Source of the DNA: Reclinomonas americana ATCC 50394
Taxonomy: Eukaryota
Direction of reading: 5' to 3'
DNA length: 39,713 nucleotides
Assembly: GCA_048213135.1 (NCBI GenBank)
Contig: PS015314.1
Span: forward strand, 32,515 to 72,227
This document shows positions 1,878-35,078 of this stretch, one piece after another. The translations under genes and the position numbers were made by a program. A model generated the notes under the pieces. That model was given only the letters and a program-made list of their open reading frames with translations. It was not told the origin of the DNA and did no database searches. Positions within the stretch are counted from its first letter, which is position 1, and every line of letters begins with the position of its first letter.

Positions 1878-4800
1878 GAGAGAGAGAGAGAGAGACAGAC
1901 AGAGAGTGAGAGACAGACAGACAGAAGACCACAAGACAGACAGACAGACACAGACAGAGAGAGAGATACAGACACAGACAGAACGAGAGAAATGGTAGGG
2001 AGAAAAAGAAGAAAGAAACAGCGAGAAAAACAGTGAAAGACAAGGAGAGTCGCACACACGGACGGAGAGAAGAAGGGCGCGTCAATGATGGACAGATGAC
2101 ACATGAACGAGACAAGGGGCGATAGAGTCAACGAATGCGAGAGTGACTGAGCTACAAAGAGAGAATGGCCATCCACTGTCGACACGTACCAACACTTCAT
2201 GCAGCTCCTGCGCTCCCTCGCCACCGGTGCCCTCGTCGGCTTGCCGATATCTCCGTGAAAAGTCTCGCACATCGTAGAACCTGCACAAAAGGATATGAGA
2301 AACTGGTGTGCCCAGAGGCGACATTGGAGGAGTGCAGCAGCGACACGAGTGGAAGCACATGACAAAAGAAGAAGAATGCACTGACACCACAGGACTACAG
2401 CAACGATAGCAAGACATGAGGAGTGCACAGAAAACTATCACCGACAGAGGAGGAGGAATGCAAGAAAGAATACACCACGGACACAGAGGAAGAAGAGTGT
2501 AATGTCGACAGCGGAGAAGCGCAATACCAACGAGCGAGAAGTAAAGAAAGTAGAGCGAGAATGGAGGAGGGCACATGAGGAATGAAGCAATGGGGAAGTG
2601 TGCAGCGGCAACAAATGAGAGATAACTAAGGAGGAGCGTGCATGAAGGTCACGCAACTTGTTGTGATCCAAGAAATGCAGGATTGACCACAGCTCTGAAA
2701 AGACAAGTCAGGCAGCGCACCAACTAGAAACTGAACAACATGACGCACCGCCAATGTTGTTCTGCAGCGGCGTGCCGGTGAGGAGCACGCGCCGTGGCAT
2801 CTCGTACTCCTCCGTCAGCTTCTTGAAGAGCTGACTCTTGTGGTTTTTCAGTCGATGTGCCTGTCAAAGGTAAAACAGTTGGATCAGCGAAGGGAGACGA
2901 GAGAGAGAAGGAGCGTCACTGCTGGAAGTCGACTGTGTACGTGTGCGAGAAAGCAGGAGAGCAGCGTCAAGGGCAAGAACTGAGGAAGCTCAGGGGGTGT
3001 GCAGAATAGAGAACAGGGCAATTGTGTCTGCAGCGGGCAGCATAGTTGGGAAGGCCAGCACTGGTAGTGACGGGCAAGAACTGATGGTGCGAGTGAGAAA
3101 GAAGGAGTATAGGAGGAGATGAGTGATTGCAACTGCGTCTGCGGTGAGCAGCCTAGTGGTACAGTCAACACGGGCAGTGACGGGTACGAATTGATGGCGT
3201 GTGAGACAGAAGGCGCAACGAGTGTGTGCCCAATGGGGACGAAGAGAGCAGCTATACCGCGAGGATAGAGAAGGAATGAAGACAAGCGAGAGGAACTGCG
3301 ACATAAATCGACAAAGGATGAGAAGGCACATTCGGCAACACGAGAGACAAACAACGAGAGAAAGAATGACGTCTCTCTCTCTCTCCCTCTTTCCCCATTC
3401 CTCCCCCTTCGCCACCCCGCCCACCTCATCCACCACCACCATCCTCCACATAAACCGACTGAGAAAATCGACCTCCAGCAAGCAATAATCGTATGTCGTC
3501 AGCAGCACGTCAAACGGCAGATCCGGATCCCGTCGCTTCTCTTTCGGCTGCTGCAGCACGCACCGCAGCACCTCCTGCTCCACGGCCTCGCGGTCCTTGC
3601 GCTCTCCCGCGTATGTCACCACGCGCAGAATGCCGGGGCTGAGTGTGCGCGAGAATTCGTCGCGCCAGTTGCGCAGCAGGGAGAGCGGCATGATGATGAG
3701 GAAGGGTGGGCGGATGTTGCATTCGCGGTAGAGGGCGGCGAGGAAGGTGATGGTTTGGATGGTTTTTCCGAGGCCCATTTCGTCGCCTGAAAAGGGGGGA
3801 AGGGAGGGGGAGAAAGGAAAGGGAGTGGGAAGGGAGGGAAGGGAGTGGGAGTGGGAGGGAGAACAGTGAGAAGGAGGGAGAGAAGAGCGTGAGACGGAAG
3901 AGAGAGATGGAACGAACAATAGAGGAGAAGAACAAAGAATGGATGAAAGGGAAAGAAAGTGAATTCTTCGTCCATTCTTCTCCTGCCTCTCCTCGTCCTC
4001 CTCGCCCTCTCAAACAGACACAACACACAGGTTGAGTGTCCCGATGTGAAGGAGACGAACGAACAGAAACACTGAGAGAGCGAGAACAAGAGGAGAAAGG
4101 AAGGAAAAGACTTTGCAGGCAGAAGCACACAGACAGGATGAGACGGAGACGAATGAGAAAGTAAGAGAGGCAACAGCGCGACAGAGGCACAGGGTGGCTA
4201 AAGAGACAAGGGAGAAAGAGGCAAGCATCAACCAAGAGAGAGAAAAGGAGGCAACGGGAGCAAAGGAAGAAGAAGAAAAAGAAGAACAAGAGCAATTGAA
4301 GAGGAGTGAGGAGGAGAAGAGTAAGGGCGAGGACGACGAAGAGCAGCGAGGAGGAGGAGGAGGGATGAGACAACAAGAAGAAGATGAAGAAGAGAACCGG
4401 ACCAATGAGGAAGAGGAAGACAAGTTGATGACAATGCAGAAGATGAACAACCCAAGAAGGAGAGGGAGAAGAGCAAGGAGAAGGAGAAGGGGAAGACGGT
4501 GAACAAGAAGAAGATGCAAAGAGAGGGACAAGACAAGAACAAGAACAATAAGGCGAAAGGAGAGCAAGGAGGCGGAAGAGGAAGACAGAGGGGTGGAATA
4601 AGAGGAACTTTAACAAGAAAGACGAACAAGAGGGAGAAGGAGAAGAGGAAGAGGAGAAGAACAAGAAGAAGAGACAGTCAAGAGAGACAACATGTGATGC
4701 TCTCCTTTCTCCGACATCAATGCACGCACACAATGCACACAATGCACAATGCACACTCACCCAACACACAATTGACTCCGCTCTGCACGCGCTCCAGCAA

Positions 4801-8465: not shown

Positions 8466-11400
8466 ATGGCTGCCGCCGCCGATGCTGCATCTCCGTCTGT
8501 CACCGCCAGCTCGGATGGCATTCGCAGGTACTTTGTCATGCAGATCGCTCGCTGTGTCATCATCGCCATTTGCTCACCACCATGTTCTGCAGCGACGGTG
8601 AACTGCAAGCCGCGAGGTAGGTGTTTCTTTACTATCATGTGCGTGTGTCTTTGCTCATCCCTTGCATCACAGTACTGTGAACATGGGACTGGAGGTGACC
8701 GAGGCTGCTCTTCGACTGCGATGTCAACGTGCGCTGGCCGAGTTCAGTCGCACTCACATCGACTTTGATGTGCGCGCCTGGCTACCCAAGTACACACCGT
8801 CGTGCTGGAAGCCGGATGATCCGGCAGTGAAGGACTGGCGTCGACGGCACACACCTCTCCATCCGCAGTTTGTCAAGTTGGACGACAAGAAGCGTGATTG
8901 TGTCATGGAGTGGCGCAGTGCATTCGAGGCAGATCGCGATGCCGACCCGCCATGTCATGGCTTCGATACGACTGCTCTAACCTCCATTCTGCTGTACGGT
9001 GGATGGGTGGACGACAGTGGTCGTGCATTCATGCTGCTTGACGACGACAAGGAGCGCGAGGCCGTGAAGCAGATTCGCGCTTTACGCAACGAGGTGGCGC
9101 ACGAACTGTCGAATCCAAAGACGAGTGTGGAAGCTGCGGTTCTGCGCAATCTCGCCAAGGACGGTGCCTTTCTCCGTGTTCTTTCTGGCCTGTGTCTGGG
9201 CGACGACAGTGAGGCGTTCTGCGGGCGGATTCGCTGGGCACATCAACTGGCGCTGCGCCAGCTTGCCAGCGACACTGTCATTTTCAGAAACGTGAATCAG
9301 CTGGACGGGTTTCCGTTTCCCAGTCGCGTTGTCGAGGCCGAGCGACTTGCGGAGCGACTGCTTCAATGCGAAGTCGGTTTGTGGATGATGCACGTTCCTC
9401 TCTCTCTCTCGATTCGCTTGCTTACATTGTGCTCGTGGTGAGCAGGTGATACTCCCGGAGTGATTGTGCTCTCTGGTGAGGGAGGGAGCGGCAAGACCAC
9501 ACTGGCCGAGTTGATTGTGTCGCAGATGGAGCGGCGCGAGTGGCGTGGCTCAGCGGTCTACTCCGACATGCGCGGTCATACAGGCGATGAAGAGCAGTAC
9601 ACCTCGGTGAGTGCGCTTGTGCTTGTGGATTTGTGTAACGTGAAGCCCGCATTGTTGGTGGTCACGGCATGTGTGTGACACAGGCCATTGACATGCTCGG
9701 GAGTGCATTGCGAGGATTTGCAAGCGTCATGGCATCGGAACGATCAAAGACAGAGTTGCTGGCGCATATCGATCTGTGGGAGAAGGGCGGAGAGGTGGAA
9801 ATGATGCGCAAGCGCCTGGGCGATCTCATGGCGGACACTCGTGGAGTGTTGCTGCTGGATAATGTGGGCAGTGCAAAGCAAGTACTGGATATTATTCGAC
9901 CGTATCACGGTGTGTATGATTGTGCGTGCTCTTGACTTTGAGGTGTCAGTCTCACTCACCATCCACTGTAATGATGATGCAGGGACGCGCCGATTGACGG
10001 CATCGATGATAATTCTGACGACTCGATTCAACCGAGTTGCCGAGCAGCTGCAGCAATCGCCGGTGCTGGGCTCAGCCTCGGTCATGCGTGTGTCGGTGGG
10101 TGACGTGGAAGCCGACGATGTGGCGCAGTATGTGCGCCAGCAGATTGATGCACCGGAGGAGATTTGTCGTGAAGTGGCGGAAGCGGCTGCGGAGCAGCCA
10201 CAGGCTTTTCGCGTTGCTCTCTGCATGAGGTTTGTGTATTGTGTGTTGATCTTCTTGTGCACACATGGTGAGTGACAAGTATACACATGCAGCATGCTGG
10301 AACGAGAGCCTCTGGAGACATTGGCGAGCGATGAGTTGCATGTGCGTCTGGCGGAGACTCGAACACTGGCTCTGGAGGATCTGATGGCCAAGAATCTGTC
10401 CAGCTGCTCGCCGCTGATGCGACAAGTGTTGCTGCTTGTGACGGCACTGCAACAAATGCGGTTGCATAGCACGCGTCGTATGGTGATGCTGCTCGTGCTG
10501 GTGTTCGGGAGTGAGGTTATGTCGGAGTCGGGAGCTTGGGTGCGGCAACTGACGGAACGGTGCGAAAGTGAGATTACTGGTGGCTTAGGTGACGGCGACT
10601 GCAAGGGCGATGTGACACAGGCGCTGGAACTGTTGCGTCGGTCAATGCTGCTGCAGGCCAGGTCAACACTGTCGTGTGATGCAGTGTGTCGGATGGTGAC
10701 TGGTGACGAGTTTTCCATGGAGCAATCGAGATTGGAGTACTACGCGCACGATATCGTGATGGAGTGGCTGGTGTCTGGCGGGCGCGAGCGGGGTGCACTT
10801 GGGTGCTGTGATGCGATTACTGATATTGTTCTCAGTGGCTTGGCCTGTGTAGGCAGTGGTGAGATCGGCAATGTGACCGAGGACATGCTAATTGATGTTC
10901 GCCCGTGTCTGCAAGTTGTATGGAGCCAGTTGCTGTCGACTATGCAGCGTGGGTGGATGCAAGGTGCTTTGCCTGCCGCGATGTCGAAGATGCGATTTGT
11001 CGGTGTGCAGTGCCTGGCATGTTTGGCGGAGACGCGTCTCCCGGTCGGCGATTTTGGTGCAGATGTGGCGATAGCATGTGCTCAATGGCTGAGAGAGCGG
11101 CAACTGGATCAGACGGATCGTGACGTGTTGCACTGGAGAGCAGAATGTGTAGCGGCGCTGCTGACGAGTGCACGTCGTGACGATGAAGCAGCCGAGTATT
11201 TGAAAGAGTACCTTACCACAGTGGAAGTCACTGATGACAGAAAAATGATTGCAATGCTTCTGCATCGGTGCGGATGTTGTCTACAGACTGTAGGCAAACT
11301 TCCCGAGGCTGAGCGACTGTACCGCGAGGTGTTGACGTTTAGACGTGAGGTGCTAGGTGACAGGCATCCAGGTACGCTTGCATCCGTGAGCAATCTTGCT

Positions 11401-14100
11401 GCCTGCGTACAGGATAGCGGCAATGTGGTCGAAGCGGAGCGACTGAATCGGGAGGTGTTGGCGTTGCAGTGCGAGGTGCTTGGTGAAAGGCATGCGCACA
11501 CGCTGGCGTCCATGAGCAATCTCGCAGTCTGCATTCAGGCCCTCGGCAATCTCGCCGAAGCCGAGCGACTGTATCGGGAGGTGTTGACGCGAGAGCAGGA
11601 GGTCCTCGGTGATAGGCATCCGCACACAGTTGGAACCATGATCAATCTCGCCAACTGCATTCACGAGAGCGGCAATCTCGCCGAAGCCGAGCGACTGTAT
11701 CGGGAGATGTTGATGCTGAGACGCGAGGTACTTGGTGACAGGCACCCAGACACGCTTGTATCCATGAACAATCTCGCCATTTGCATCGAGGGAAGTGGAA
11801 ATCTCGCCGAAACCGAGCGACTGCATCGGGAGGTGTTGATGGGCAGACGCGAGGTGCTTGGTGACAGGCATCCAGATACGCTGGCGTCCATGAATAATCT
11901 TGCCAACTGCATTCAGGAGAGCGGCAATCTCGCTGAAGCTGAGCGACTGTATCGAGAGTTGTTGCTGTTGCAGCTTGAGGTGCTTGGTGGCAAGCACCCC
12001 AGCACGCTGGCAAGTATGAACAATCTCGCCAGCTGCGTGAAGGCAAGCGGTAACCTCGTCGAATCCGAGCGACTGCATAGTGAGGTGCTGGTGTTGATGC
12101 GTGAGGTGCTTGGTGACAGGCATCCAGATACACTGGCGTCTCTGGGCAATTTTGCAAACTGCATCCATTCGATTGGAAATGTCGTAGACGCCGAGCGGTT
12201 GTCTCGAGAAGTGTTGCGATTGAGGCGTGAGGTGCTTGGTGACAGACACCCAGACACGCTGGTGTCCATGAACAATCTCGCCAGCCACATCCAGGCTCGT
12301 GGCAATGCTTCCGAAGCTGAGCGACTGTTTCGGGAGGTGTTGGCGTTGAAGCGTGAAGTGCTTGGTCACAAGCATCCAGATACTTTGACGTCCATCAATA
12401 ACCTTGCCGTCTGCATCCAGGAGAGTGGCAATCTCGCCGAAGCCGAGCGACTGTATCGAGAGGTGTTGGCGCTGCGTTGCGAGGTGCTCGGCGGCAGCCA
12501 TCCAGACACGCTGACATCTATGAGCTGTCTCGCCGGCTGTGTCCAGGCCAGTGGCGATCTCGCCGAAGCCGAACGACTGTTCCGAGAGATGTTGGAATTG
12601 CAGCGCGAGGCGCTTGGTGAGAGACATCCAGACACACTGGTGTCCGTGAATAATCTCGCCGGCTGCATCCAGGAGAGAGGCAATCTCTCCGAAGCTGAGC
12701 GACTGTATCGGGAGGTGTTGGCGTTGCAGTGCGACGTGCTCGGTGACAATCATCCTATGCGCGGCAAACTTGCCGAAGCTGAGCGACTATGTCGTGAATC
12801 AATGGGGTTGCATCGTGTGGTGCATGGTGATAGACATCCGCACACGCTGGCATCTGTGAACAATCTCGCCAGTTGCGTGCAAGCGAGTGGCAAACTCGCC
12901 GAAGCGGAGCGACTGCATCGGGACGTGTTGGCGTTGAGGCGTGAGGTTCTTGGTGACAGGCATCCAGACACGTTGAATTCCATGCTCAGTCTCGCCACTT
13001 GCATGCAAGCCAGTGGCAATCTCACCGACGCCGAGCGACTAGTTCGGGAGGTGTTGGGGCTGAGGCGCGAAGTGCTTGGTGATCGACATACCGACACACT
13101 TTCATCCATGAACAGCCTCGCCATCTGCATCCAGGCGAGTGGCAATCTCGCCGAAGCCGAGCTACTGTATCGGGAGGTGTTGGTTTTGACACAAGAGATG
13201 CTCGGTGACAGACATCCACTCACGTTGACGTGTATGAGCAACCTCGCCAGCTGTGTCCGAGCGCGCGGCAATGTCGCCGAGGCCGAGCGTCTGTATCGGG
13301 AGGTGTTGACGTTACAAAATGAGGTGCTTGGTGACAGGCATCCCGACACGCTGGCATGCATGAACAGTCTCGCCGAATGCATCCATAGACGCGGCAATGT
13401 TGGCGAATCCGAGCAATTGTTTCGTGAGGTGTTGACGTTAAGGCGTGAGGTGCTTGGCGGCAGGCATCTGCAGACGCTGATGTCCATGAACAATGTTGCC
13501 TGCTGCGTGCAGGCGAGTGGCAATCTCGCCGAAGCAGAGAAACTGTATCGCGAGGTGTTGGAGTTGAGGTGTGAGGTGCTTGGCGACAGGCATCCGCACA
13601 CGCTTGTGTCCGTGAACAATCTCGCTAGCTGCGTTCGAACGCGCCGCAATCTCTCGCAACTGCATCATCGTGTGGAGGCGTTGGGGTTGCAGCGTGAGGT
13701 ACTTGGTGACAGCGATCTTAGTACGCTCGTGTCAGTTAACAGTGTCGCCATCACCATGAAGGCATGTGGCAATCTCGCTGAAGCCGAGCGACTGTGTCTG
13801 GATATACTGACGTTGAGGCGTGAGGTGCTTGGCGGCAGACATCCAGATACACTAGTGTCCATGAACAATCTCGCCGTTTGCACTCAGGCACGAGGCAATC
13901 TCGCCGATGCGGAACGGCTTTATTGTGAGGCGTTGGTGTTACTGCGTGAGGTGCTTGGTGACTGGCATCCGCATACACTGGCGACGATGTATAATCTCGC
14001 CAACTGCTTGCGCGCAATCGGCAATCTGGCCGAAGCTGAGCGACTGCATCGGGCAGTGTTGGCGTTGATACGTGAGGCGCTTGACAGTGGCGGGCACTAG
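8466..14100 (+). CDS. NLR-like STAND protein: HEPN domain + NB-ARC-like P-loop NTPase + TPR array (~1740 aa)
   Basis: Phase-consistent GT-AG exons 8466-8527, 8593-8616, 8673-9376, 9446-9606, 9684-9909, 9983-10229, 10293-14100. Motifs: FDTTALTSIL...AVKQIRALRNEVAH (Rx4H at 9085-9102), Walker A GEGGSGKT (9475-9498), Walker B VLLLDNV, sensor-1 IILTTR, MHD-like YYAHD (10738-10752), then 42-aa TPRs. Confidence 0.88.
11293..14100 (+). repeat. Coding tandem array of 126-bp (42-aa) TPR units, ~22.5 copies
   Basis: Consensus GNLAEAERLYREVLxLRREVLGDRHPDTLxSMNNLAxCxQxS (kinesin-light-chain/TPR_10-12 type); unit 12 is 14 aa short and unit 20 is divergent. Confidence 0.95.
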
Positions 14101-17824: not shown

Positions 17825-18607
17825 GCGACCACCTCACCCTCCTCAAAATCTACCGCGAATACCGCTCCCACAAGCGTGAACGCGGCTGGTGCACGAGGAA
17901 TTTCATCAACTTTCGCTCCATGGCGAAGGTCTGCCGCTTTGCCCCCATTCCCCCCTTCCCCCTTCCCCTGTTGACCGCTCCACAGGTCGACGACGTGCTG
18001 ACACAACTCAAGGACTTTTGCCGGCGCCTCGACATCAACTGCGAGGCCTCACTTGACGATCCCGACACCCTCTGTCGGTGCCTGTGCGCCGGCTTTTTCC
18101 AAAACACTGCACGCCCCACTGGTCTCTTTTGCCTTTTTCAACTCGCGCTATCATTGTCCCCGCTCACCGACTTGTTGTTGGTGATGGCGCAGGAACACCG
18201 GGCAAGTTCCGCACGCTGCTGGATGGCGTGGAGGTGGCCGTACATCCTTCCTCGGTGCTCTTCAACAATCGCACACCGTCGTGGATTCTGTACAACGAGC
18301 TGGTGGTCACCGGCAAGGCGTACTTGCGCGACGTGACCATGATTGATCAGTCGTGGCTCACCGAGGCGGCGCCCGACTTTTTCGTGTCCACCGGCACCGT
18401 GGACGTTGCGTGTGCTTGCCTGGCTTATTGCACCCTCCTCATGTATGCTTATGATGGTTGCCGTTGCAGGTCACGGATACTGGTAACCAGTCTGCGGCGG
18501 GCGGTGTCGTCACTGGCCGACAACGCGTCAAGGCCGTGGTCAATCGTGCAACTGGTGGCAGCAGCAGCAGCAGCAGCAGCGGTGGTCGGAGTCCTGCAGG
18601 GAGATAG
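17825..18607 (+). CDS. DHX33: DHX33-like helicase C-terminal (HA2/OB-fold) exons
   Basis: GDHLTLLKIY...WCTRNFINFRSM, LCAGFFQNTA, VHPSSVLF...ILYNELVVTGKAYLRDVTMIDQSWLTEAAP; last exon 18470-18607 ends in TAG. RecA2 exons are presumably in the N-gaps. Confidence 0.82.
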
Positions 18608-18677
18608 CCTCGCTTCTTTTCATTACCAAATAACAATAGAGAATCGCATAGACAATCTTCACGTGCGTGTCTCTTGC

Positions 18678-21600
18678 TCAGTAGGTCTGCAGAAGAGTGA
18701 CACTATTGAGTGTCGAGAGAGTCGACACTCACGAGACACGCATGACGCAACGGCTTTCTCGGCGTCGGACATTTCCTTCCAGGCCTGACCCAGGAGTTTC
18801 ACAATCACCGAGGCCGGGCGATCCGGATGCTGCACAACAACAATCAGTTGACAAGGAACACCACAGCACCACAAACGCCCCACAAAACCTTCGCTTTGAA
18901 CTCCTCCTGCTTCGCACGCGCGAATCGCAGGAACGGGTTGAGGGGGCGGTCGATTGCATCGTCGCTGACTTTGCCTTTTGGAGGGACAGGAGCAGCAGCG
19001 GCAGCAACGGCGGCGACGGCAGCCGGAACAGCAGCACCACCACCGAATCCAACGGCGTCTGGGCGTGAGGGCGGAGCGAATCCGGCGATCAATTGACCAG
19101 CACGCGGATCGTCGAAACCTGCGGCTGGATTCGCAAACCCACGGGCAGCAGGGTATTCCCACTTCGGCATTGCCGGTACCTTCTTGGGCGCATTTCCGTT
19201 CCCCGCAGCATCCGACTTATTCTTGACGGGGGCAAGCTTCGCAGCCGCCGCCGCCGGTGGAGCATCGGGAGAGCCGAACAGACCGGCAAGTTTCGCCGGC
19301 ACTTGTGAAAAAGCGTCGGCGGGACCAAATGCAAACGGACGTGGCGGTTCCGCAGGCGGAGGCGCACTGAACTTGAATCCACCGCCGGCGGCCGGGGCAG
19401 GGGCGGCAGCAGCAGCGGCAGCGGCACCAAATCCAAAGCCGCCGCCGGCGGGCGGGTTTGCCAGTTTGAAACCAGGTTGTGCAGGTTGTGCAGCCTGCGC
19501 AGCACCACCACCAAATCCAACAGCAGGTTGGACCTGTGCGCCACCAAATCCGAAACCAGGTTGCGCAGGTCGTGCAGCCTGCGCAGCCGCAGGGGCGCCA
19601 CCAAAGCCGAAAGCAGGCTGCGCAGGTTGTGCAGCAGCAGCCGACTCACCAAAGCCAAAACCAGGTTGCGCAGGTTGTGCAGCAGCAGCAGCAGCGGCCC
19701 CAAACCCAAATGCGGGCTGTGCAGCCTGCGCAGCAGCAGCCGACCCACCAAAGCCAAAACCAAGTTGCGCTGGTTGCGCAGCAGCAGCGGCGCCACCAAA
19801 TCCAACAGCAGGTTGGGCCTGTGCGCCACCAAATACGAAAGCGGGTTGTGCAGGTTGTGCGGCCTGCGCAGCAGCAGGGGCGCCACCAAAACCAAAACCA
19901 AGTTGCGCAGGTTGCGCAGCAGCAGCGGCACCACCAAGGCCAAAACCAGGTTGCGCAGGTTGCGCAGCAGCGGCGGCGCCACCAAAGCCAAAAGCGGGTT
20001 GTGCAGCCTGCGCAGCACCAACGCCACCAAATCCAACAGCGGGCTGGGCCTGTGCGCCACCAAATCCGAAAGCCGGTTGCCCAGGTTGTGCAGCAGCAGC
20101 AGCGGCCCCACCAAAGCCACATGCGGGCTGTGCAGCCTGCGCAGCCGCGGCGCCACCAATGCCAAAACCAGGCGGTGCAGGTTTCAGATGCGGGTACGCT
20201 CTGGCAGCTGCCGCGGCCGCTTCAATTGCTGCAACCATCGGACTTGGCGCAGGTGCTGCAGCACCGAATCCGAAACCAGCCGCTGCTGGCGGAGGAGCAC
20301 GCTGCGGAGACACAGCTCGTTGTCCGAACCTAACCGCACGCGCTTCCGCCTTGAATCCGAAACCACCCTCCGCTGGCGGCGGAGACGGAGCAGGCGACAC
20401 AAATTTGGCCGCAGCTGGTTGTGCAGGTACACCTAATCTGAACGCGGCTCGTTGTGAGAGCGAAGCCGCACGCGCCTCCGCGGGCACTGCAGCAGCAGCA
20501 CCGAATGCGAAGCCACCCGCTGCAGGCTGCGGCGACGCCCTGATTCGAACACCATCTGCAGGCGGAAGCGGAGAGGCCGAGCCATCTCCAACTTGGGCAG
20601 AAACCACAGGCTGCTCTGCTGGCTGCCGATGCAAGGGCACGCCGAACACGGTGACGCCAGAGTAGGCGAGAGGGGGAGGACGAGCAGCGGCAGCTCGCGC
20701 ATCGGGAGACTCGACTAGCGATTTGAGACGCTTCTCACTGATGCCGGCCAAGGCACCTGCGCGGCACGGAGGGTGTCAGTGGCAGTTTCGCACAACCCTT
20801 TTTTTATAGCAACTCACCTGCCAGCATGTCCGCGGCCGACGTCTGCGCCACGGGCGAGGCTGATACGCGCACGAAGCGATTGATAGAGTCGCCGTCGGCG
20901 GTCACAGAGTGGGCGACACGAACGGCGGAGCGCACACGCTCGAAATTCTCCTGCAAGTCCTGTGTGCGTGGTGCGGCAGAAAATGATGAGCAACACACGA
21001 AGTCTGTCGGTGACGTGAGAAAGGCAGCACGAACCACCAGAGTCTTGTCCAGCGACTCCCAGCGCGCAATGTCAAGTCTCTGCAAGTACTCGCTGGTGGG
21101 ATTGAGCTCCGCCAGTTGTCGGTTGGCGCGCAACAAGAATTCTGTGAGGCCAATCAATGAAAAACAACAAGAAATAACAAGAAAAGGAGGAGACCACGTG
21201 CGCACCCTGTTCACGCTGAATGGCGAGCTGGCGAGCTCGCACCTCCTGTGCCACGAAGTCTTGCAGCTGGTGCCGGAAGAGGTCCACCAGGCGATCAATC
21301 TCCGCCTGCAAGGGGTGAGTGGTGCGCGAAGCGGACAACGGGGAGAGGTAGGCGGGGGCGCACGCAACAGGATCCTCGGCGGCCGCGAGCGCCGTCTTCA
21401 TCGCCTCCACGTTGCGTGAGCGCTCGGCCACCGCCACTCGGAGTTTGCTGGTGGCCACTTGCACGTAGTCTCGCTACACACGCAGGGAATATATTAGGAG
21501 AAGGGCGATAAGGGGGAAAGCGAAGGGGAGGAGAAAGAAAGGGGGAAGGGAAAGGGGAAAAGGAAAGGGAGAGAGAGAGAGAGAGAGAAGCAGGTGACCA

Positions 21601-23441
21601 TGAAGGACAAGAAAGACAGAAGAACACATTCGCCAACATCTACAAACTTATCAGACGGGCGGTACTGCATTCCATCTGCCAAGCGAGTGCTGTGTGCAAA
21701 GTCCTCTGACAACCTCCCCTATGCCCAACCGTGACACACACCACCTGCCAGGCACTCACCGTTGCGCGCACATTCGTGCGAATCTGCGCCGCTGCGTCGT
21801 CGTCGGCCTTGACCAGCGTGTATTGCTTTGGCGCGCTGTGTGCTTATCGAGTTAACGCAACTTCAATAGAAACGCGCGCAGCACCATCACCAACCTCGCC
21901 GCACACTGCTCGCACAACGGCGACATGGATTTGAGGTCGACGAGGGTCAGTGGAGCACGGTGCAGTGGGCATAAATGGCTGGCGGCGTCGTGCTTGTCAA
22001 AAACGCCCTCCGCACCATCGCGACTGTCACGGAAAAATGAGCACCGCCACCAAGCTGCAACAATAGAAGAAGAAACGCGAAACTTGCGCTTCAGTTGAAC
22101 CGGCGAGAGGCACACAAACTCGTGAATGTCGCTTCCACGGCGCACCACCGACTCCTGCATTGAAGGTCAGCGAAAGTCTCACACGCTCCACACAAAAATA
22201 CGCACCGCCGAGCAACAAGTACACTTGAAACATGCGTCGGCGGCCTGCAATGAATGCAACTCCGCCTCGTAGTACGCGCTGCGTAGAGAAGATGGTGAGT
22301 CAAGACACGTGGGAAGATGACACGGCGAGCAGAAACTCACGTGAAGCAGCCGTAGCAGAGGGGGTGTGGCGTCAGGCACTCGGGCAACACAATGTACTCG
22401 AACGTCTGATCGTGGCAGAACATGCATTGCACGCGCTCAATCTGGGACAGAGCGATGATGGTGAGGAATCAAGTCGCACACCAGGCGCTTCACACAGCAC
22501 GCACCTCAAAGATATCCGCGACGGCCAGCGGGGCGCCAGGCGACCGCACCGACGCCGCCAACTGCTCCTGCTCCTCCTTGTCGTCCCCCGGCATCTCCTT
22601 CTTCTCCTGCTCCTTCTCTTCAGCCGCCGCCTCCACCTCCTTCTTCATCTTGCGCGCCTGCTGATGCTCCACGTCATCCTTCTCCTCTTCTTCGTCCTCT
22701 TCCTCATCATCGGCATCATCGTCGTCATCAACATCATCATGCAGGTACGACGGGAAGCCGGCGGCGGCCATGACGGCATCCAACTCGCGCGCCAGCTGCA
22801 CGACGAGATGCTTGAAGGGATCCGCCACCTCCTTCAGCTGGAACGGAGCAGCCGGTGGCGGGAACGGCGGCAAGTGCTGCAGTGGCGGCAGCGGTTGTAG
22901 TAGATCGGCGGGTCTCATCAGCGGCATCGCCATGCGGAGGGGTCTTGCGAGGCCGGATTTGCGGGCGGGAGCCAGGGGCTGTGGTGGGAAGGAGGGAAGG
23001 AGGGAAGGCAAAGGAGAGAGAGAGGAGAGGAGAAAAGTGAATGAGAATGCGTTGGGACTGGTGAAGAGAGAAGGCAATGGTGCGCTGCGATGCTCACGCA
23101 TTGTCACAGTGAGTGATAGAGAGAGAGAGAGAGCAAGAGAGGAGAGGAGATGAGGGGCTCAGAGACTGCATCACGGCGAGCGAGGAGAGGACATTGGAGA
23201 AGAAAGAGAGAGAGCATGTCAGTGAGTAAGAGAGGAGAGGAAATGAGCAACTCAGTGACTGGAATGAGGAAAAGTTGGGCGAGTGGGAGCTTGGTGAAGA
23301 GAGAATGCATTGTGTCTTGCACTATGCAAGCAGAGCCACAGTGACTGTCAGTGAGTGAGTGGAGAGCAAGTCAGTGAGTGAGTGGAGAGCAAGTCAGTGA
23401 GTGACGAAGGAGAGGAGATGAGCAACTCAGTGAATGCCACA

Positions 23442-23487
<46 letters not shown>

Positions 23488-23780
23488 AAGAAGAGAGCGT
23501 CGTAGATATAGAGAGATGACAGTGACAGTCGACAACAACTAACTACCTACCTTCCTTCCTTCCTTCCTTCCTTACCTACCAACCAACCAACCAACCAACC
23601 TACCNNNNNNNNNNNNNNNNNNNNNNNNNNNNNNNNNNNNNNNNNNNNNNNNNNNNNNNNNNNNNNNNNNNNNNNNNNNNNNNNNNNNNNNNNNNNNNNN
23701 NNNNNNNNNNNNNNNNNNNNNNNNNNNNNNNNNNNNNNNNNNNNNTCGTACGTTACGGTGTACGGTCGGTACGTCGTAGT

Positions 23781-23817
<37 letters not shown>

Positions 23818-23847
23818 ACGTCGAGACGACGACGAGACGAGAGAGAG

Positions 23848-23895
<48 letters not shown>

Positions 23896-24288
23896 AGGAG
23901 AAACGAGGAAGCGCGTTCGGATATATGAGAATGCATGCATGCACACAATCACTCTCTCTCTCTCTCACACACACACACTCACCTCCACGCGCTTCTTCTT
24001 CTTTGGCCTATTCAGCTCCTCCTCATCAACCTCCGCCTCCGCCTTTGCCTCCTCATCATCATCATCATCTTCCGCGGAAGGCGCGGGAAACCTCACCGCT
24101 TGTTGCTGCAGGAATGCAAATGGAGCATTCACAGAGGCCATTCCACGCACACGAAGAGGCGGAGAGCGAGAGCGAGAACGAGAGGAAGAGGAAGAGTGAG
24201 AAGACGCATCGTCGTCTTCTAATTCTTCGTCGTATTCACTCTCACTCTCGCTCTCGCTGTAGTGGTGGCGGTTGTTTCGATTGTGCAT
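18678..24288 (-). CDS. RING-B-box-coiled-coil (TRIM/RBCC-like) protein with FG-repeat region and C-terminal HMG box (~1210 aa)
   Basis: Phase-consistent GT-AG exons 24288-23983, 22978-22505, 22441-22341, 22278-22206, 22154-22084, 22023-21895, 21835-21760, 21473-21369, 21305-21206, 21141-21035, 20959-20818, 20756-18889, 18829-18752, 18686-18678. Features: NLS-like PKKKKRV; C3HC4 RING CMFC-x12-CLTPHPLCYGC-x20-CTCC; B-box-like CPLH-x7-D-x7-CEQC; helical segment; GFGFG repeats; IDRPLNPFLRF...HPDRPASVIVKLLGQAWKEMSDAEKATY*. A small gap lies in intron 1. Confidence 0.8.
19320..20520 (-). repeat. Coding FG-repeat array (GFGFGGAAAAAQPAQP-type units)
   Basis: Repeated ccaccaaa(g/t)ccaaaaccaggttgcgcaggttg units on +; about 30 FG dipeptides with A/Q/P/G spacers and almost no charged residues. 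Confidence 0.9.
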
Positions 24289-24574
24289 CTTGCTCTCTCT
24301 CTCTCACACACACACACTCTCACTCACACACACTCTCTGTGTTGAGTTTGCGTCGTGTGTGCGAAAATAGCAATTGATTGCATTGCACCAGGACTGTGAC
24401 GGAATTCCAAGTGTACTCTTGTTGCGTGCTGCACTATAACGAGTACACGTTGTGTTGCTCACAAAACACCGCTGCAAGCTGAGTGCGTGCGGAAGAGAAA
24501 TTCGAAATACTGGATCCGAACGTCGCGGTATCAATTTTTTGTGTGGTTGCTTGTTGTGTGGCGTGTTGCTGCGC

Positions 24575-24715
24575 GAATGCAAACGGAGCATTCACAGAGG
24601 CCATTCCACGCACACGAGGAGGCGGAGAGCGAGAGCAAGAGGAAGAGGGGAGAAGAGCGAGAAGAGTGAAAATCTTCCGTCGACGTCTTCTTCTTCGTAT
24701 TCTCTCGTGCTCTTG
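24575..24715 (-). pseudogene. Degenerate upstream duplicate of part of exon 1 of the RBCC-FG-HMG gene
   Basis: gaatgcaaacggagcattcacagaggccattccacgcacacgaggaggcggagagcgagagc matches 24112-24175 and encodes SRSPPPRVRGMASVNAPFAF; the upstream acidic segment is in another frame. Confidence 0.7.
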
Positions 24716-32334: not shown

Positions 32335-33689
32335 TTACCTGGCGTCGGGGGAGCGGTCGTGGGACGGCGCTGGCGGTCCCAGTTCCATGTCTGGATGCAA
32401 GTCGCGCAACTCGGCCCACAGACGAGCTGCGTGAGGGTGTTGTGTGAGCAAGTGTGTGTGGCGTAGCATGGCAGAGAACAGCGCACCTGCAAGCTCGTTC
32501 TCGGGCGCCTCGGTCGACACTTCGCTCTCGAACGGCGATGACACGAGCTGCAAACTAACAGTGAGGAGAGAGGGGTGGGTGAAGCGTGGAGCACGCCTGC
32601 AGTCGACCCACCTCGTCTGCCTCACTTCGAATGGGAGCAAAGTACTCGTGAGCCAGTGCCTGGTCGGCGGCGATGCGATGATTCGGGTGGAAGCGCAGCA
32701 GCTTTTGCATCAAGTCAATGGCTGCAAAAGTAGAGAAGTGAGTGCGGTGCGATGTGCGGTGAGGAGAGGGACGAGCTGACCTGCAGGAGGAGCGTCAGGG
32801 AAGAGACTCTTGAAACTGCGGCCGACGAATCGAGGCTGGATGATGGTGCTGAGATAACGCAGGGCCTGTGCATGGTGCGGTTCTCTTCAGCTTGGTGGGG
32901 AGGAGGAAGTGAGTGCGGCAATACGCACGTCGCCCGTGCACACGTCGGCCACCTCGTCTTGCTGCGGCGTGCCAATGACTTCAAAAATGCAGCGCAGTTG
33001 CGTCAAGGCTGCGCACAGAGATGTAAGTCTCAGACAGAGGGAATTCTTGAGGTGCAACGCAACGTGGTCCTTGCACTGGCTCGAAGAGCATCTTCTGCAA
33101 GTACATTTCTGCAAACACGCAGCCGATGCTCCACATGTCGAGTGAACGTGTGAGTCAAGGAGTTCCAGATGAGGAGGAGAGCGCGGGGACGAAGAGCTGA
33201 GGGTGAAGGATATTTGCATCGGAATAGTATGGACTCTCGAGAATGAGCTCCGGTGCTGTCGGCGGAGAGTCAGAGACTACAATGAGGGGAGAGCGAGCGG
33301 AAGGCAACGGCAAACCTCGATACGGTCGTGAGATGACGTACATGGTGAGAGTGGGGTCTTGGGCGCGACGGCGGTCGGAGCGAGCGAGGCCAAAGTCGCA
33401 AAGCTGACAGGGGGAGGAGGTGGGAAAAGGGATACAGGGAAAGATAGAACGAGGGCGAGAGAGAGAGAGAGAGAGAAGAGTGACACCAGACGCGAGCGAG
33501 AGGAAGAGAGACGGAAAAACAAAGTATACGCTCACCTTGGCACTGCCGTCGGAGCTGATGAGAATGTTGGCTGGTTTCCTGTGGCACTGCAGTGTGAGAT
33601 AGAATCCTGAGGCTCCGAACTTCCCTAATGCTCTCTCTTTCTCTTTGTCTACCTGTCTGTATGTCTGCCTGTGTGTCTGTCTGCCTGTG

Positions 33690-33732
<43 letters not shown>

Positions 33733-33755
33733 TTCTCTGTCTGTCTGTCTCTCTA

Positions 33756-33794
<39 letters not shown>

Positions 33795-35078
33795 GCCTGC
33801 CTGCCTGCCTACCTGTCTGTCTGCCTGTCTATCTGCCTGTCTATCTGCCTGTCTGTCTGTCTGTCTGTCTGTCTTTCTGTCTGTCTCTATGTCTCTCTGT
33901 CAGTCTGTCTATCTGGCTTGCTGGCTGACTGGCTGGCTGGCTGTCCGTATGTCTGTGTGTCTTTCTGTGAGTGTGTGTCTCTCTCTCTCTTTCTCTCTGT
34001 CTCTCTGTTTCTCTATCTGTCTGTCTGTCTGTCTGTCTGCCTGTCTGTCTGTCTGTGTGTCTCTCTCTCTCACACACACTCAAACTCTCTGTCTCTATTT
34101 GCCTGTCTCTCTGTCTTTCTATCAGTCTGTCTGTCCTGTCTCTCTGTCTGTCTGTCTGGCAATGGTCATCTTCTCACTGCTATTTTCACGTGAACGACGG
34201 ACGCAACAAATCACGGTGCAGCACATTGCAGGCATGCATGTAGTTGACGCCCTTGATGATGTCGTACAGCAGACGACGGCGCTCCTGCTCAGCGAGCGGT
34301 CTCTGACGCAGCAGGCTTGTCGCGCACACGCGAGATGAGCAGCAATGATAATGATAAAGTAATGCAGACAAGCAAGCGCACCGATGCAGATCGGTGCTGG
34401 CCCGATCAAACACAAAATACACGTCGCGGAAGCGCGAGAAGCGCGAGGAGTTGGGGAAGGCGTCACGCAGTCGCACCAGCTGCACTCTCACAAAAGTCAG
34501 CCGGGCGACAAACAATCGCGGCAAAGGCGCGCAACATTAGGATGACTGAGATGCCGCAACAGGATCAACTCCCTCGTAATCCTACAGCGATAGCACAGTG
34601 AATGAACTGTCCCACGCAAACGAGGCAAGAGGCAGGCCACCTCGCACCGTCTCAAATACGTTGCGCTGCGTCGCACCTCGGGGCACCTCTGCATCGCAAC
34701 GGTAAGCACCTGGTGATAGTGGTTGAGAAGGAGGCAGTGGGAGAGACCTTGATGGCCACCACCTCCTGCGTCTTGGCGTCGAGTGCCGACACCACAGAGC
34801 CGTACGTGCCCGTGCCCAGGTGGCCCTTGTCAAAGAGGCGGTAGCATGTGCGCACGATCCAGTCGCTGGCCACTGCGGTGCGACCGATCTGCGGGGGGAG
34901 GGAAAGGGAGGGAGGGAGGGGGGGAGAAGGGAAAAAGAGGGAGGGGAAGGGAAGGGGGGGGTGAGGAAGGGAAGAGAGAGACAGATGAGAGAGAATGGGC
35001 GAGGAGAAGCGAGACTGGGCAGAGAGCCTGCTTGGAGGCAGAGGTGACACAGCGAGGCTGACGGAGAGGCTCAAAGGC

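Follow-up and report, generated by a model that had tools for sequence, protein, structure and literature searches.

A predicted 13-exon gene of Reclinomonas americana with a RING motif, a helical region, FG repeats and an incomplete HMG box

Genes and features at the locus

We analysed a window of 39,713 nucleotides (nt) from Reclinomonas americana ATCC 50394, meaning by this the whole stretch of DNA under study, with positions counted from its first letter. The subject is a gene on the minus strand, here called the RING/FG gene, which runs from an ATG at 24288 to a TGA ending at 18678. The predicted protein carries a C3HC4 RING motif, a Cys/His motif, a helical region, phenylalanine-glycine (FG) repeats and an HMG-like end. 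We put the probability at about one half that this is one 13-exon gene whose product is a nuclear RING/helical E3 ubiquitin ligase, its disordered domain being of the FG type and its HMG box vestigial.

The window is clearly eukaryotic, and on the minus strand between 24500 and 18400 GC-rich coding blocks alternate with short GT..AG segments. Joined from landmark positions, the spliced frame comprises 3,699 nt in 13 exons and encodes 1,232 amino acids (aa). It is phase-consistent and has no internal stops or frameshifts. A preliminary description of this DNA, made from the sequence alone, had proposed 14 phase-consistent exons; the phase consistency and the start and stop limits hold, but 13 exons were assembled. 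The proposed order of modules was recovered in this single gene model. The exons, all on the minus strand, are as follows.

Exon 1 (tentative), 23983..24288, minus: start codon, Ser/Glu/Asp-rich low complexity, PKKKKRV resembling a nuclear localisation signal (NLS; 23986-24006), GTGAGT donor
Exon 2, 22505..22978, minus: Pro-rich, then strongly acidic (Asp plus Glu 39/158); strong polypyrimidine/CAG acceptor; no Pfam family above noise
Exon 3, 22341..22441, minus: RING ligands 1-6, C-x2-C-x12-C-x3-H-x2-C-x2-C
Exon 4, 22206..22278, minus: second RING loop and final Cys pair (x17-C-x2-C), after a 62-nt GTGAGT..CAG intron that follows exon 3
Exon 5, 21895..22154, minus: Cys/His-rich, with a degenerate B-box2-like C-x2-H-x7-D-x7-C-x2-C
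Exon 6, 21760..21835, minus: start of the helical region
Exon 7, 21369..21473, minus: helix, by AlphaFold2 and heptad score
Exon 8, 21206..21305, minus: helix, by AlphaFold2
Exon 9, 21035..21141, minus: helical region, by gene model and heptad score
Exon 10, 20818..20959, minus: end of the helical region and linker; GTGAGT donor, 61-nt intron, CTGAC 20 nt before the acceptor
Exon 11 (1,868 nt), 18889..20756, minus: disordered linker, FG-repeat domain (about 19273-20646) with a tandem array (19469-20164), unique tail, first HMG-like helix (18889-18960)
Exon 12, 18752..18829, minus: region of HMG-box helix 2
Exon 13, 18678..18686, minus: Thr-Tyr codons and the TGA stop

All 12 introns begin with GT and end with AG, the acceptor being CAG in 11 and TAG in one. 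Introns 1 to 12 measure 1004, 63, 62, 51, 59, 286, 63, 64, 75, 61, 59 and 65 nt, so that 10 of the 12 fall between 51 and 75 nt; those leading from the helical exons to the FG exon span 61-75 nt. In 10 of 12 introns a YTNAY branch-like site lies 5-40 nt upstream of the acceptor; the same held for 15% of 5,000 control windows drawn from exons. The stricter CTRAY branch site is present in 4 of 12 introns, against 3% of the control windows. GC content is lower in introns than in exons, with intron 7 as the exception. A candidate intron of 31 nt within exon 5 was rejected, being far under the 51-nt minimum of the gene.

The window belongs to a draft scaffold with nine runs of N, one of which (23605-23745) lies inside the gene. 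From the RING exon through the HMG exon (18678-23604) there is no N at all, which argues that the RING-to-HMG exons are not a scaffolding join. Furthermore, the first ~190 codons of the 643-codon frame in exon 11 include no Met, and the frame is entered through the 61-nt intron with its GTGAGT donor and CTGAC, so it cannot start a gene alone and upstream exons are needed. Taken together, these signals lead us to infer that all exons lie on one mRNA.

On the plus strand, a DEAH-type helicase gene converges on the RING/FG gene. Its exon at 18210-18383 matches OB_NTP_bind (E=2.4e-16), and its coding sequence ends at 18607. Its introns, read from the sequence, are 57, 71 and 86 nt long. This similarity suggests that short introns are a habit of this genome.

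Modules of the predicted protein

The NLS-like PKKKKRV is located at aa 95-101, and we take it to fit the classical monopartite NLS pattern. Acidic residues (Asp plus Glu) account for 26 of 102 positions in exon 1 and 39 of 158 in exon 2. Both the signal and the acidic tracts had been reported before, and both are present in exons 1-2, exon 1 being tentative. An 88-nt direct repeat of 90% identity was also observed here: the part of exon 1 at 24098-24185 is copied at 24561-24648, 463 nt upstream. The repeat includes an internal Met codon and a short hydrophobic stretch, and it could represent a duplicated or alternative first exon, or a remnant.

The RING motif, C-x2-C-x12-C-x3-H-x2-C-x2-C-x17-C-x2-C, is located at aa 266-316. 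It is a complete C3HC4 motif only once exons 3 and 4 are spliced, and the full eight-ligand spacing then bears out the RING proposed earlier. When aa 256-435 were shuffled 20,000 times with their composition preserved, the spacing came up twice, a number that speaks for the pattern only. The inputs for Pfam, PDB and AlphaFold2 were unspliced translations of window DNA (single exons or contiguous pieces). Since an intron splits the RING, profile and PDB searches at the exon level see nothing useful. Specifically, the Pfam matches of exon 3 are at noise level (zf-RING_14, E=0.072; SNAPC3, E=0.065), and the PDB search with phmmer returned three matches, none of them a RING protein and all explained by cytochrome-type CxxCH.

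Exon 5 encodes C-x2-H-x7-D-x7-C-x2-C at aa 380-402, a pattern that was chosen after the sequence had been seen and that arose in 5 of 20,000 shuffles. Its spacing and hydrophobic positions presumably fit the first part of the B-box2 domain. Five of the eight ligand positions are kept, and the terminal His pair is missing. At the second zinc site of the B-box2 consensus, the residues are Asp, Ser and absent, and an expression for the full B-box2 built from the same consensus has no match in the spliced protein. A word-indexed search of longer proteins gave 101 candidates, none at E<=0.01. The motif is at most a degenerate B-box-like motif. The B-box of the preliminary description could not be upheld, as three of the eight ligand positions are gone and Pfam, PDB and the ESM Atlas do not recognise it.

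We also scanned metagenomes with the B-box exon. The scan gave 247 pattern matches, two of which passed tblastn (40% identity over residues 29-81). A candidate relative at 3527-3676 of contig L001 was rejected as spurious, because it lies in a 108-aa alternative frame that overlaps a 732-aa frame on a GC-rich contig. The long frames of this contig look bacterial by eye, and the match appears to be a chance one seeded by a single eight-residue pattern.

The heptad score, our own crude measure, is highest at about aa 401-550, a stretch of about 150 aa directly after the Cys/His motif. For the piece 21207-21473 (exon 7, intron 7 and exon 8), AlphaFold2 predicted helices at residues 2-32 and 54-88. 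The predicted local distance difference test score (pLDDT) of the exon 8 helix is 91-95 in its final three blocks. The 63 nt of intron 7 translate to 21 residues that fall in the coil between the helices, where residues 38-49 have pLDDT below 50. This pattern fits a helical stalk and a genuine intron 7. The pLDDT of the predicted helices reaches 95, and the region may form a coiled coil. The long helical segment described earlier is thus supported by the heptad score and, for exons 7 and 8, by AlphaFold2.

Exon 11 contains the FG-repeat domain of about 450 aa. From aa 619 to aa 1152 we counted 34 FG motifs, in most cases as GFGFGG with Ala runs and QPAQP after it, in units of ~16 aa with Ala/Gln/Pro spacers. 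The tandem unit measures 48 nt, and 9.5 copies of it occupy 19565-20017. Charged residues are few, with 12 Lys plus Arg and 5 Asp plus Glu between aa 761 and 1110 (17 charged in 350 aa). Such a long disordered stretch, rich in FG motifs and poor in charges, is a trait of FG nucleoporins. The 643-codon frame is the sole frame open across both non-repetitive flanks (~200 aa and ~130 aa). The repeat also leaves a 522-aa open reading frame (ORF) on the plus strand at 19097-20665 and long frames in the other minus-strand phases; these appear to be by-products of a stop-poor repeat and not genes.

To compare the 643-aa frame with known proteins, we searched 1.84 billion representative proteins with phmmer. 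There were 48 matches at E<=1e-3, of which 6 reached E<=1e-10 and none E<=1e-30, and in all 48 the best stretch lies inside query residues 117-525. Among the best 10 of the 48 matches, Nucleoporin_FG, Nsp1_C or Nucleoporin_FG2 is present in three, whose FG regions hold the matched stretches; no family was recognised in six, and the remaining one, P0001, is a repeat protein of no relation. No RING, B-box or HMG family occurs among these 10. When the full spliced model was aligned to the 48 matches, no significant stretch was seen beyond the repeats. Pfam found no nucleoporin family or anchoring domain on any exon. The GFGFG/AQPAQP repeats reported earlier are thus confirmed as 34 motifs in one 1.9-kb exon with a likeness to nucleoporin FG regions. 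An orthologue of a known nucleoporin, which would have spoken against the preliminary description, was not found among the 1.84 billion representatives, where the similarity is to FG repeats only.

The C-terminus resembles an HMG box in part. Exon 12 alone (26 aa) matches Pfam HMG_box (PF00505) with E=8e-4 and 20.2 bits, below the cutoff of 25.4, over profile positions 23-48 of 69. In PDB, 21 of its 23 matches at E<=10 are HMG-box proteins, the best being SOX-18 (E=0.0025). For the final 30 aa of exon 11, PDB gave one weak match only (E=1.6), which covers residues 3-23 of 7cyu_A, the HMG box of SMARCE1; exon 12 matches residues 26-49 (of 71) of the same chain. This indicates that both HMG halves are colinear across the 59-nt intron. 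The terminal HMG box described before therefore stands for helix 1 (weakly) and helix 2, but helix 3 is absent and the family cutoff is not reached. Without helix 3, DNA binding cannot be assumed.

A motif resembling helix 3 was looked for within 1.7 kb downstream, and none was found. Alternative 3' ends (other donors or acceptors, retention of intron 12, further exons) were rejected, as none restores helix 3. Exons further downstream were rejected because they would run antisense through the last coding exon of the helicase gene. The helicase stop codon at 18605-18607 is 70 nt from the stop of the RING/FG gene, which leaves no room for more coding sequence. With convergent stops this close (18605-18680), the 3' untranslated regions of the two genes must overlap or be extremely short.

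Interpretation and alternative explanations

Based on these modules, we propose the following function. The C3HC4 RING would recruit an E2. The ~150-aa helical region that follows would serve oligomerisation, as it does in TRIM-type and RING/coiled-coil ligases. For the ~450 aa of uncharged GFGFGG/Ala-Gln-Pro sequence, we suggest a behaviour similar to that of cohesive FG domains in nucleoporins: by binding transport receptors, by entering FG phases at the pore or within nuclear bodies, or by both, this domain would determine where the ligase sits. The HMG-box remnant (helices 1-2) would give at most a weak, non-specific contact with chromatin. We propose ligase activity, oligomerisation, partitioning into FG phases and a nuclear or pore localisation from the roles that these modules have elsewhere. 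The preliminary description had also considered sensing of incoming DNA, and nothing in our analysis speaks for DNA sensing.

Several observations weigh against this interpretation, and they concern the gene model as well as the modules. The exon joins are predicted from sequence signals, and the protein searches gave no orthologue with which to compare them. Intron 1, at 1,004 nt, contains the N gap at 23605-23745 and parts exon 1 from exon 2; exon 1 is locally duplicated in part, and alternative in-frame Met codons occur in exon 2 and further along exon 1. As introns 7 and 9 preserve the frame and contain no stops, they may be retained, and the 286 nt of intron 6 could conceal a gene boundary. 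Codon usage, trained on the single long tetratricopeptide repeat (TPR) frame of the window, gives weak support. The proposed frame is the best of three forward frames in 11 of 12 exons; over six frames it stands strictly first in 6 of the 12, shares first place in 2 and is outscored in 4. In the FG exon the gene's own frame scores worst, and GC content at third codon positions (GC3) is 0.45 there, compared with 0.64-0.85 in exons 2-10 and 12.

For the modules, no Pfam model reaches its cutoff on any exon, and the 643-aa frame has no Pfam family at E<=1, Nucleoporin_FG included. P0001, among the best 10 of the 48 matches, has no FG at all, which indicates that part of the similarity of the FG exon is mere low complexity. 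The B-box exon has no Pfam family at E<=10, no match to PDB sequences with phmmer at E<=10 and no usable match in the ESM Atlas, and its AlphaFold2 model has a mean pLDDT of 52.4. Finally, about 48 of the 69 HMG profile positions are present, the frame ends with Thr-Tyr-stop, and positions 49-69 (helix 3) are missing, which could mean decay.

These observations leave room for other explanations. Two same-strand neighbours may have been joined in the model, namely a small RING/Cys-His protein (exons 1-6 with read-through into intron 6) and a helical/FG/HMG-like protein that starts at a Met of exon 7. Intron 6 is 4-5 times the usual size here, read-through of its donor reaches a stop after ~42 codons, exon 7 has the in-frame Met that is needed, and the genome is compact, as the 70 nt between the convergent stops indicate. 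However, the donor of intron 6 is the consensus GTGAGT, a CTAAT lies 21 nt ahead of the TAG acceptor, and the intron is flanked by phase 0 at either end. The helical character is continuous from exon 6 to exon 7, and both a terminator and a promoter would have to fit into 286 nt. We regard two separate genes as rather unlikely. If the gene model fails, the locus holds nothing more than ordinary neighbouring genes, one for a RING protein and one for an FG-rich protein.

The locus could also be decaying or mis-assembled, with the repeat exon and the truncated HMG box as remnants, or with a collapsed or chimeric array, so that no functional protein of this architecture exists. The loss of HMG helix 3 with a stop two codons into the final exon, the three missing ligand positions of the B-box-like motif, the atypical GC3 of the FG exon, the long frames that the repeats leave open on both strands (such as the 522-aa plus-strand ORF) and the draft scaffold with its nine N runs would all agree with this. 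A spliced frame of 1,232 codons without an internal stop or frameshift, intact splice signals at 12 of 12 introns and a 643-codon frame that stays open through its non-repetitive flanks argue against decay, which we consider improbable. Another explanation, which overlaps with the proposed ligase, is a structural FG nucleoporin with an accessory RING, whose helical region anchors it in the pore scaffold like the coiled coils of Nsp1/Nup62. The helical segment adjoins the FG domain, and the FG region is similar to nucleoporins, including one protein with Nsp1_C. But Nsp1_C, Nucleoporin_FG and other nucleoporin families are found on no exon, the database matches are confined to the repeats, and no RING-bearing nucleoporin turned up in the open-access literature searched. 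A structural nucleoporin thus seems doubtful to a similar degree.

The nuclear RING/helical ligase is therefore the explanation we prefer. If its exons lie on one transcript, its FG tail would be without precedent for a RING E3. As a rule, FG domains are anchored to the scaffold of the pore, and to our knowledge enzymes working inside an FG phase are scarcely known. A RING ligase with ~450 aa of cohesive-type FG sequence would be a natural tool for studying if ubiquitination takes place inside the pore barrier or inside FG condensates. Such a ligase would also show that some protist or algal lineage has recruited FG domains for non-transport jobs. A more speculative proposal, which we hold to be a long shot, is that the ligase dissolves via its own FG domain into the permeability barrier of the nuclear pore, or builds FG-based nuclear bodies on chromatin. 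If so, it would be a germline counterpart of the fusions of FG repeats with DNA-binding domains, coupled to ubiquitination, and would mark cargo, stalled receptors or chromatin inside the FG phase.

The preliminary description knew of no protein combining RING, FG repeats and HMG, and this agrees with our searches. Neither the protein searches nor the open-access full texts searched gave a description of such a protein. Queried with the FG exon, the 1.84 billion representative proteins yielded no orthologue and no protein of the same architecture. A neighbouring gene offers an explanation. The minus-strand exon at 3419-3787 encodes a SNF2-family ATPase, whose best relatives are plant CHR10/CHD1L-type helicases and one EukProt protein at 47-48% identity. 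Such low best identity suggests that the lineage is poorly sampled, which explains the failure to find an orthologue of the RING/FG gene.

Other features of the window were also recorded. An uninterrupted frame of 1,274 codons at 10276-14097 on the plus strand consists almost entirely of near-identical TPR_10 and TPR_12 repeats (E=1.9e-198 and 2.6e-188; 22 and 19 stretches, respectively). It resembles the kinesin-light-chain-type repeats of NLR-like proteins, and in the ESM Atlas it has as neighbours generic TPR clusters from bacteria and ascomycetes. Microsatellites of the (GA)n/(TC)n and (GTCT)n types, often adjoining N gaps, abound in the long introns and between genes (for example 23830-23960, 21500-21640 and 33600-34200).

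Comparison with known systems

The preliminary description had called the protein TRIM-like. Sardiello et al. (2008, PMC2533329) held the tripartite motif to be exclusive to metazoans, with the B-box as its defining domain. Marin (2012, PMC3503706) reports a TRIM37-like subfamily A outside animals. The earlier remark that TRIM proteins are best known from animals thus needs this qualifier, and a RING/B-box/coiled-coil (RBCC) protein outside animals is not new in itself. Like TRIM/RBCC proteins, TRIM37-like subfamily A included, the present protein has a C3HC4 RING with a second loop of 17 residues, a Cys/His motif of B-box2-like spacing ~64 aa further on, and then directly a long helical region. 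Unlike them, it has an acidic region of 260 aa ahead of the RING and a B-box-like motif that lacks the second zinc site and is unrecognised by Pfam, PDB and the Atlas. FG repeats stand in place of MATH, SPRY or any other TRIM C-terminal domain. Since the defining B-box is recognised by no tool, we do not file the protein as a TRIM, and it may instead work like a RING/coiled-coil ligase.

RanBP2/Nup358 is an FG nucleoporin and a SUMO E3 without a RING, with zinc fingers of another type and Ran-binding domains. It combines FG repeats with ligase activity at the pore, as is proposed for the present protein. The two differ in the RING, and no sequence relation was seen between them. The FG nucleoporins of the Nsp1/Nup62 and Nup1/Nup2 types share with the present protein dozens of FG motifs, regular short units and uncharged spacers. 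In contrast to them, its similarity is limited to the repeats, no pore-anchoring family domain is found, the Nucleoporin_FG model is silent, and the spacers are rich in Ala/Gln/Pro and not in Ser/Thr/Asn.

The C-terminus compares best with HMG-box proteins, of which SOX-18, TFAM and SMARCE1 are the best solved matches. Positions 23-48 (PD..., ...LG..WK..S..EK) are colinear with them, and helix 1 more weakly so. Unlike in these proteins, helix 3 is missing and the score is under the Pfam cutoff. Finally, fusion oncoproteins of the NUP98-homeodomain type are somatic animal chimeras that carry GLFG repeats and an intact DNA-binding domain. As in the present protein, a single polypeptide has FG repeats on the N-terminal side of a domain of the DNA-binding type. 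Here, in contrast, only part of the HMG box is present, and there is a RING module in addition.

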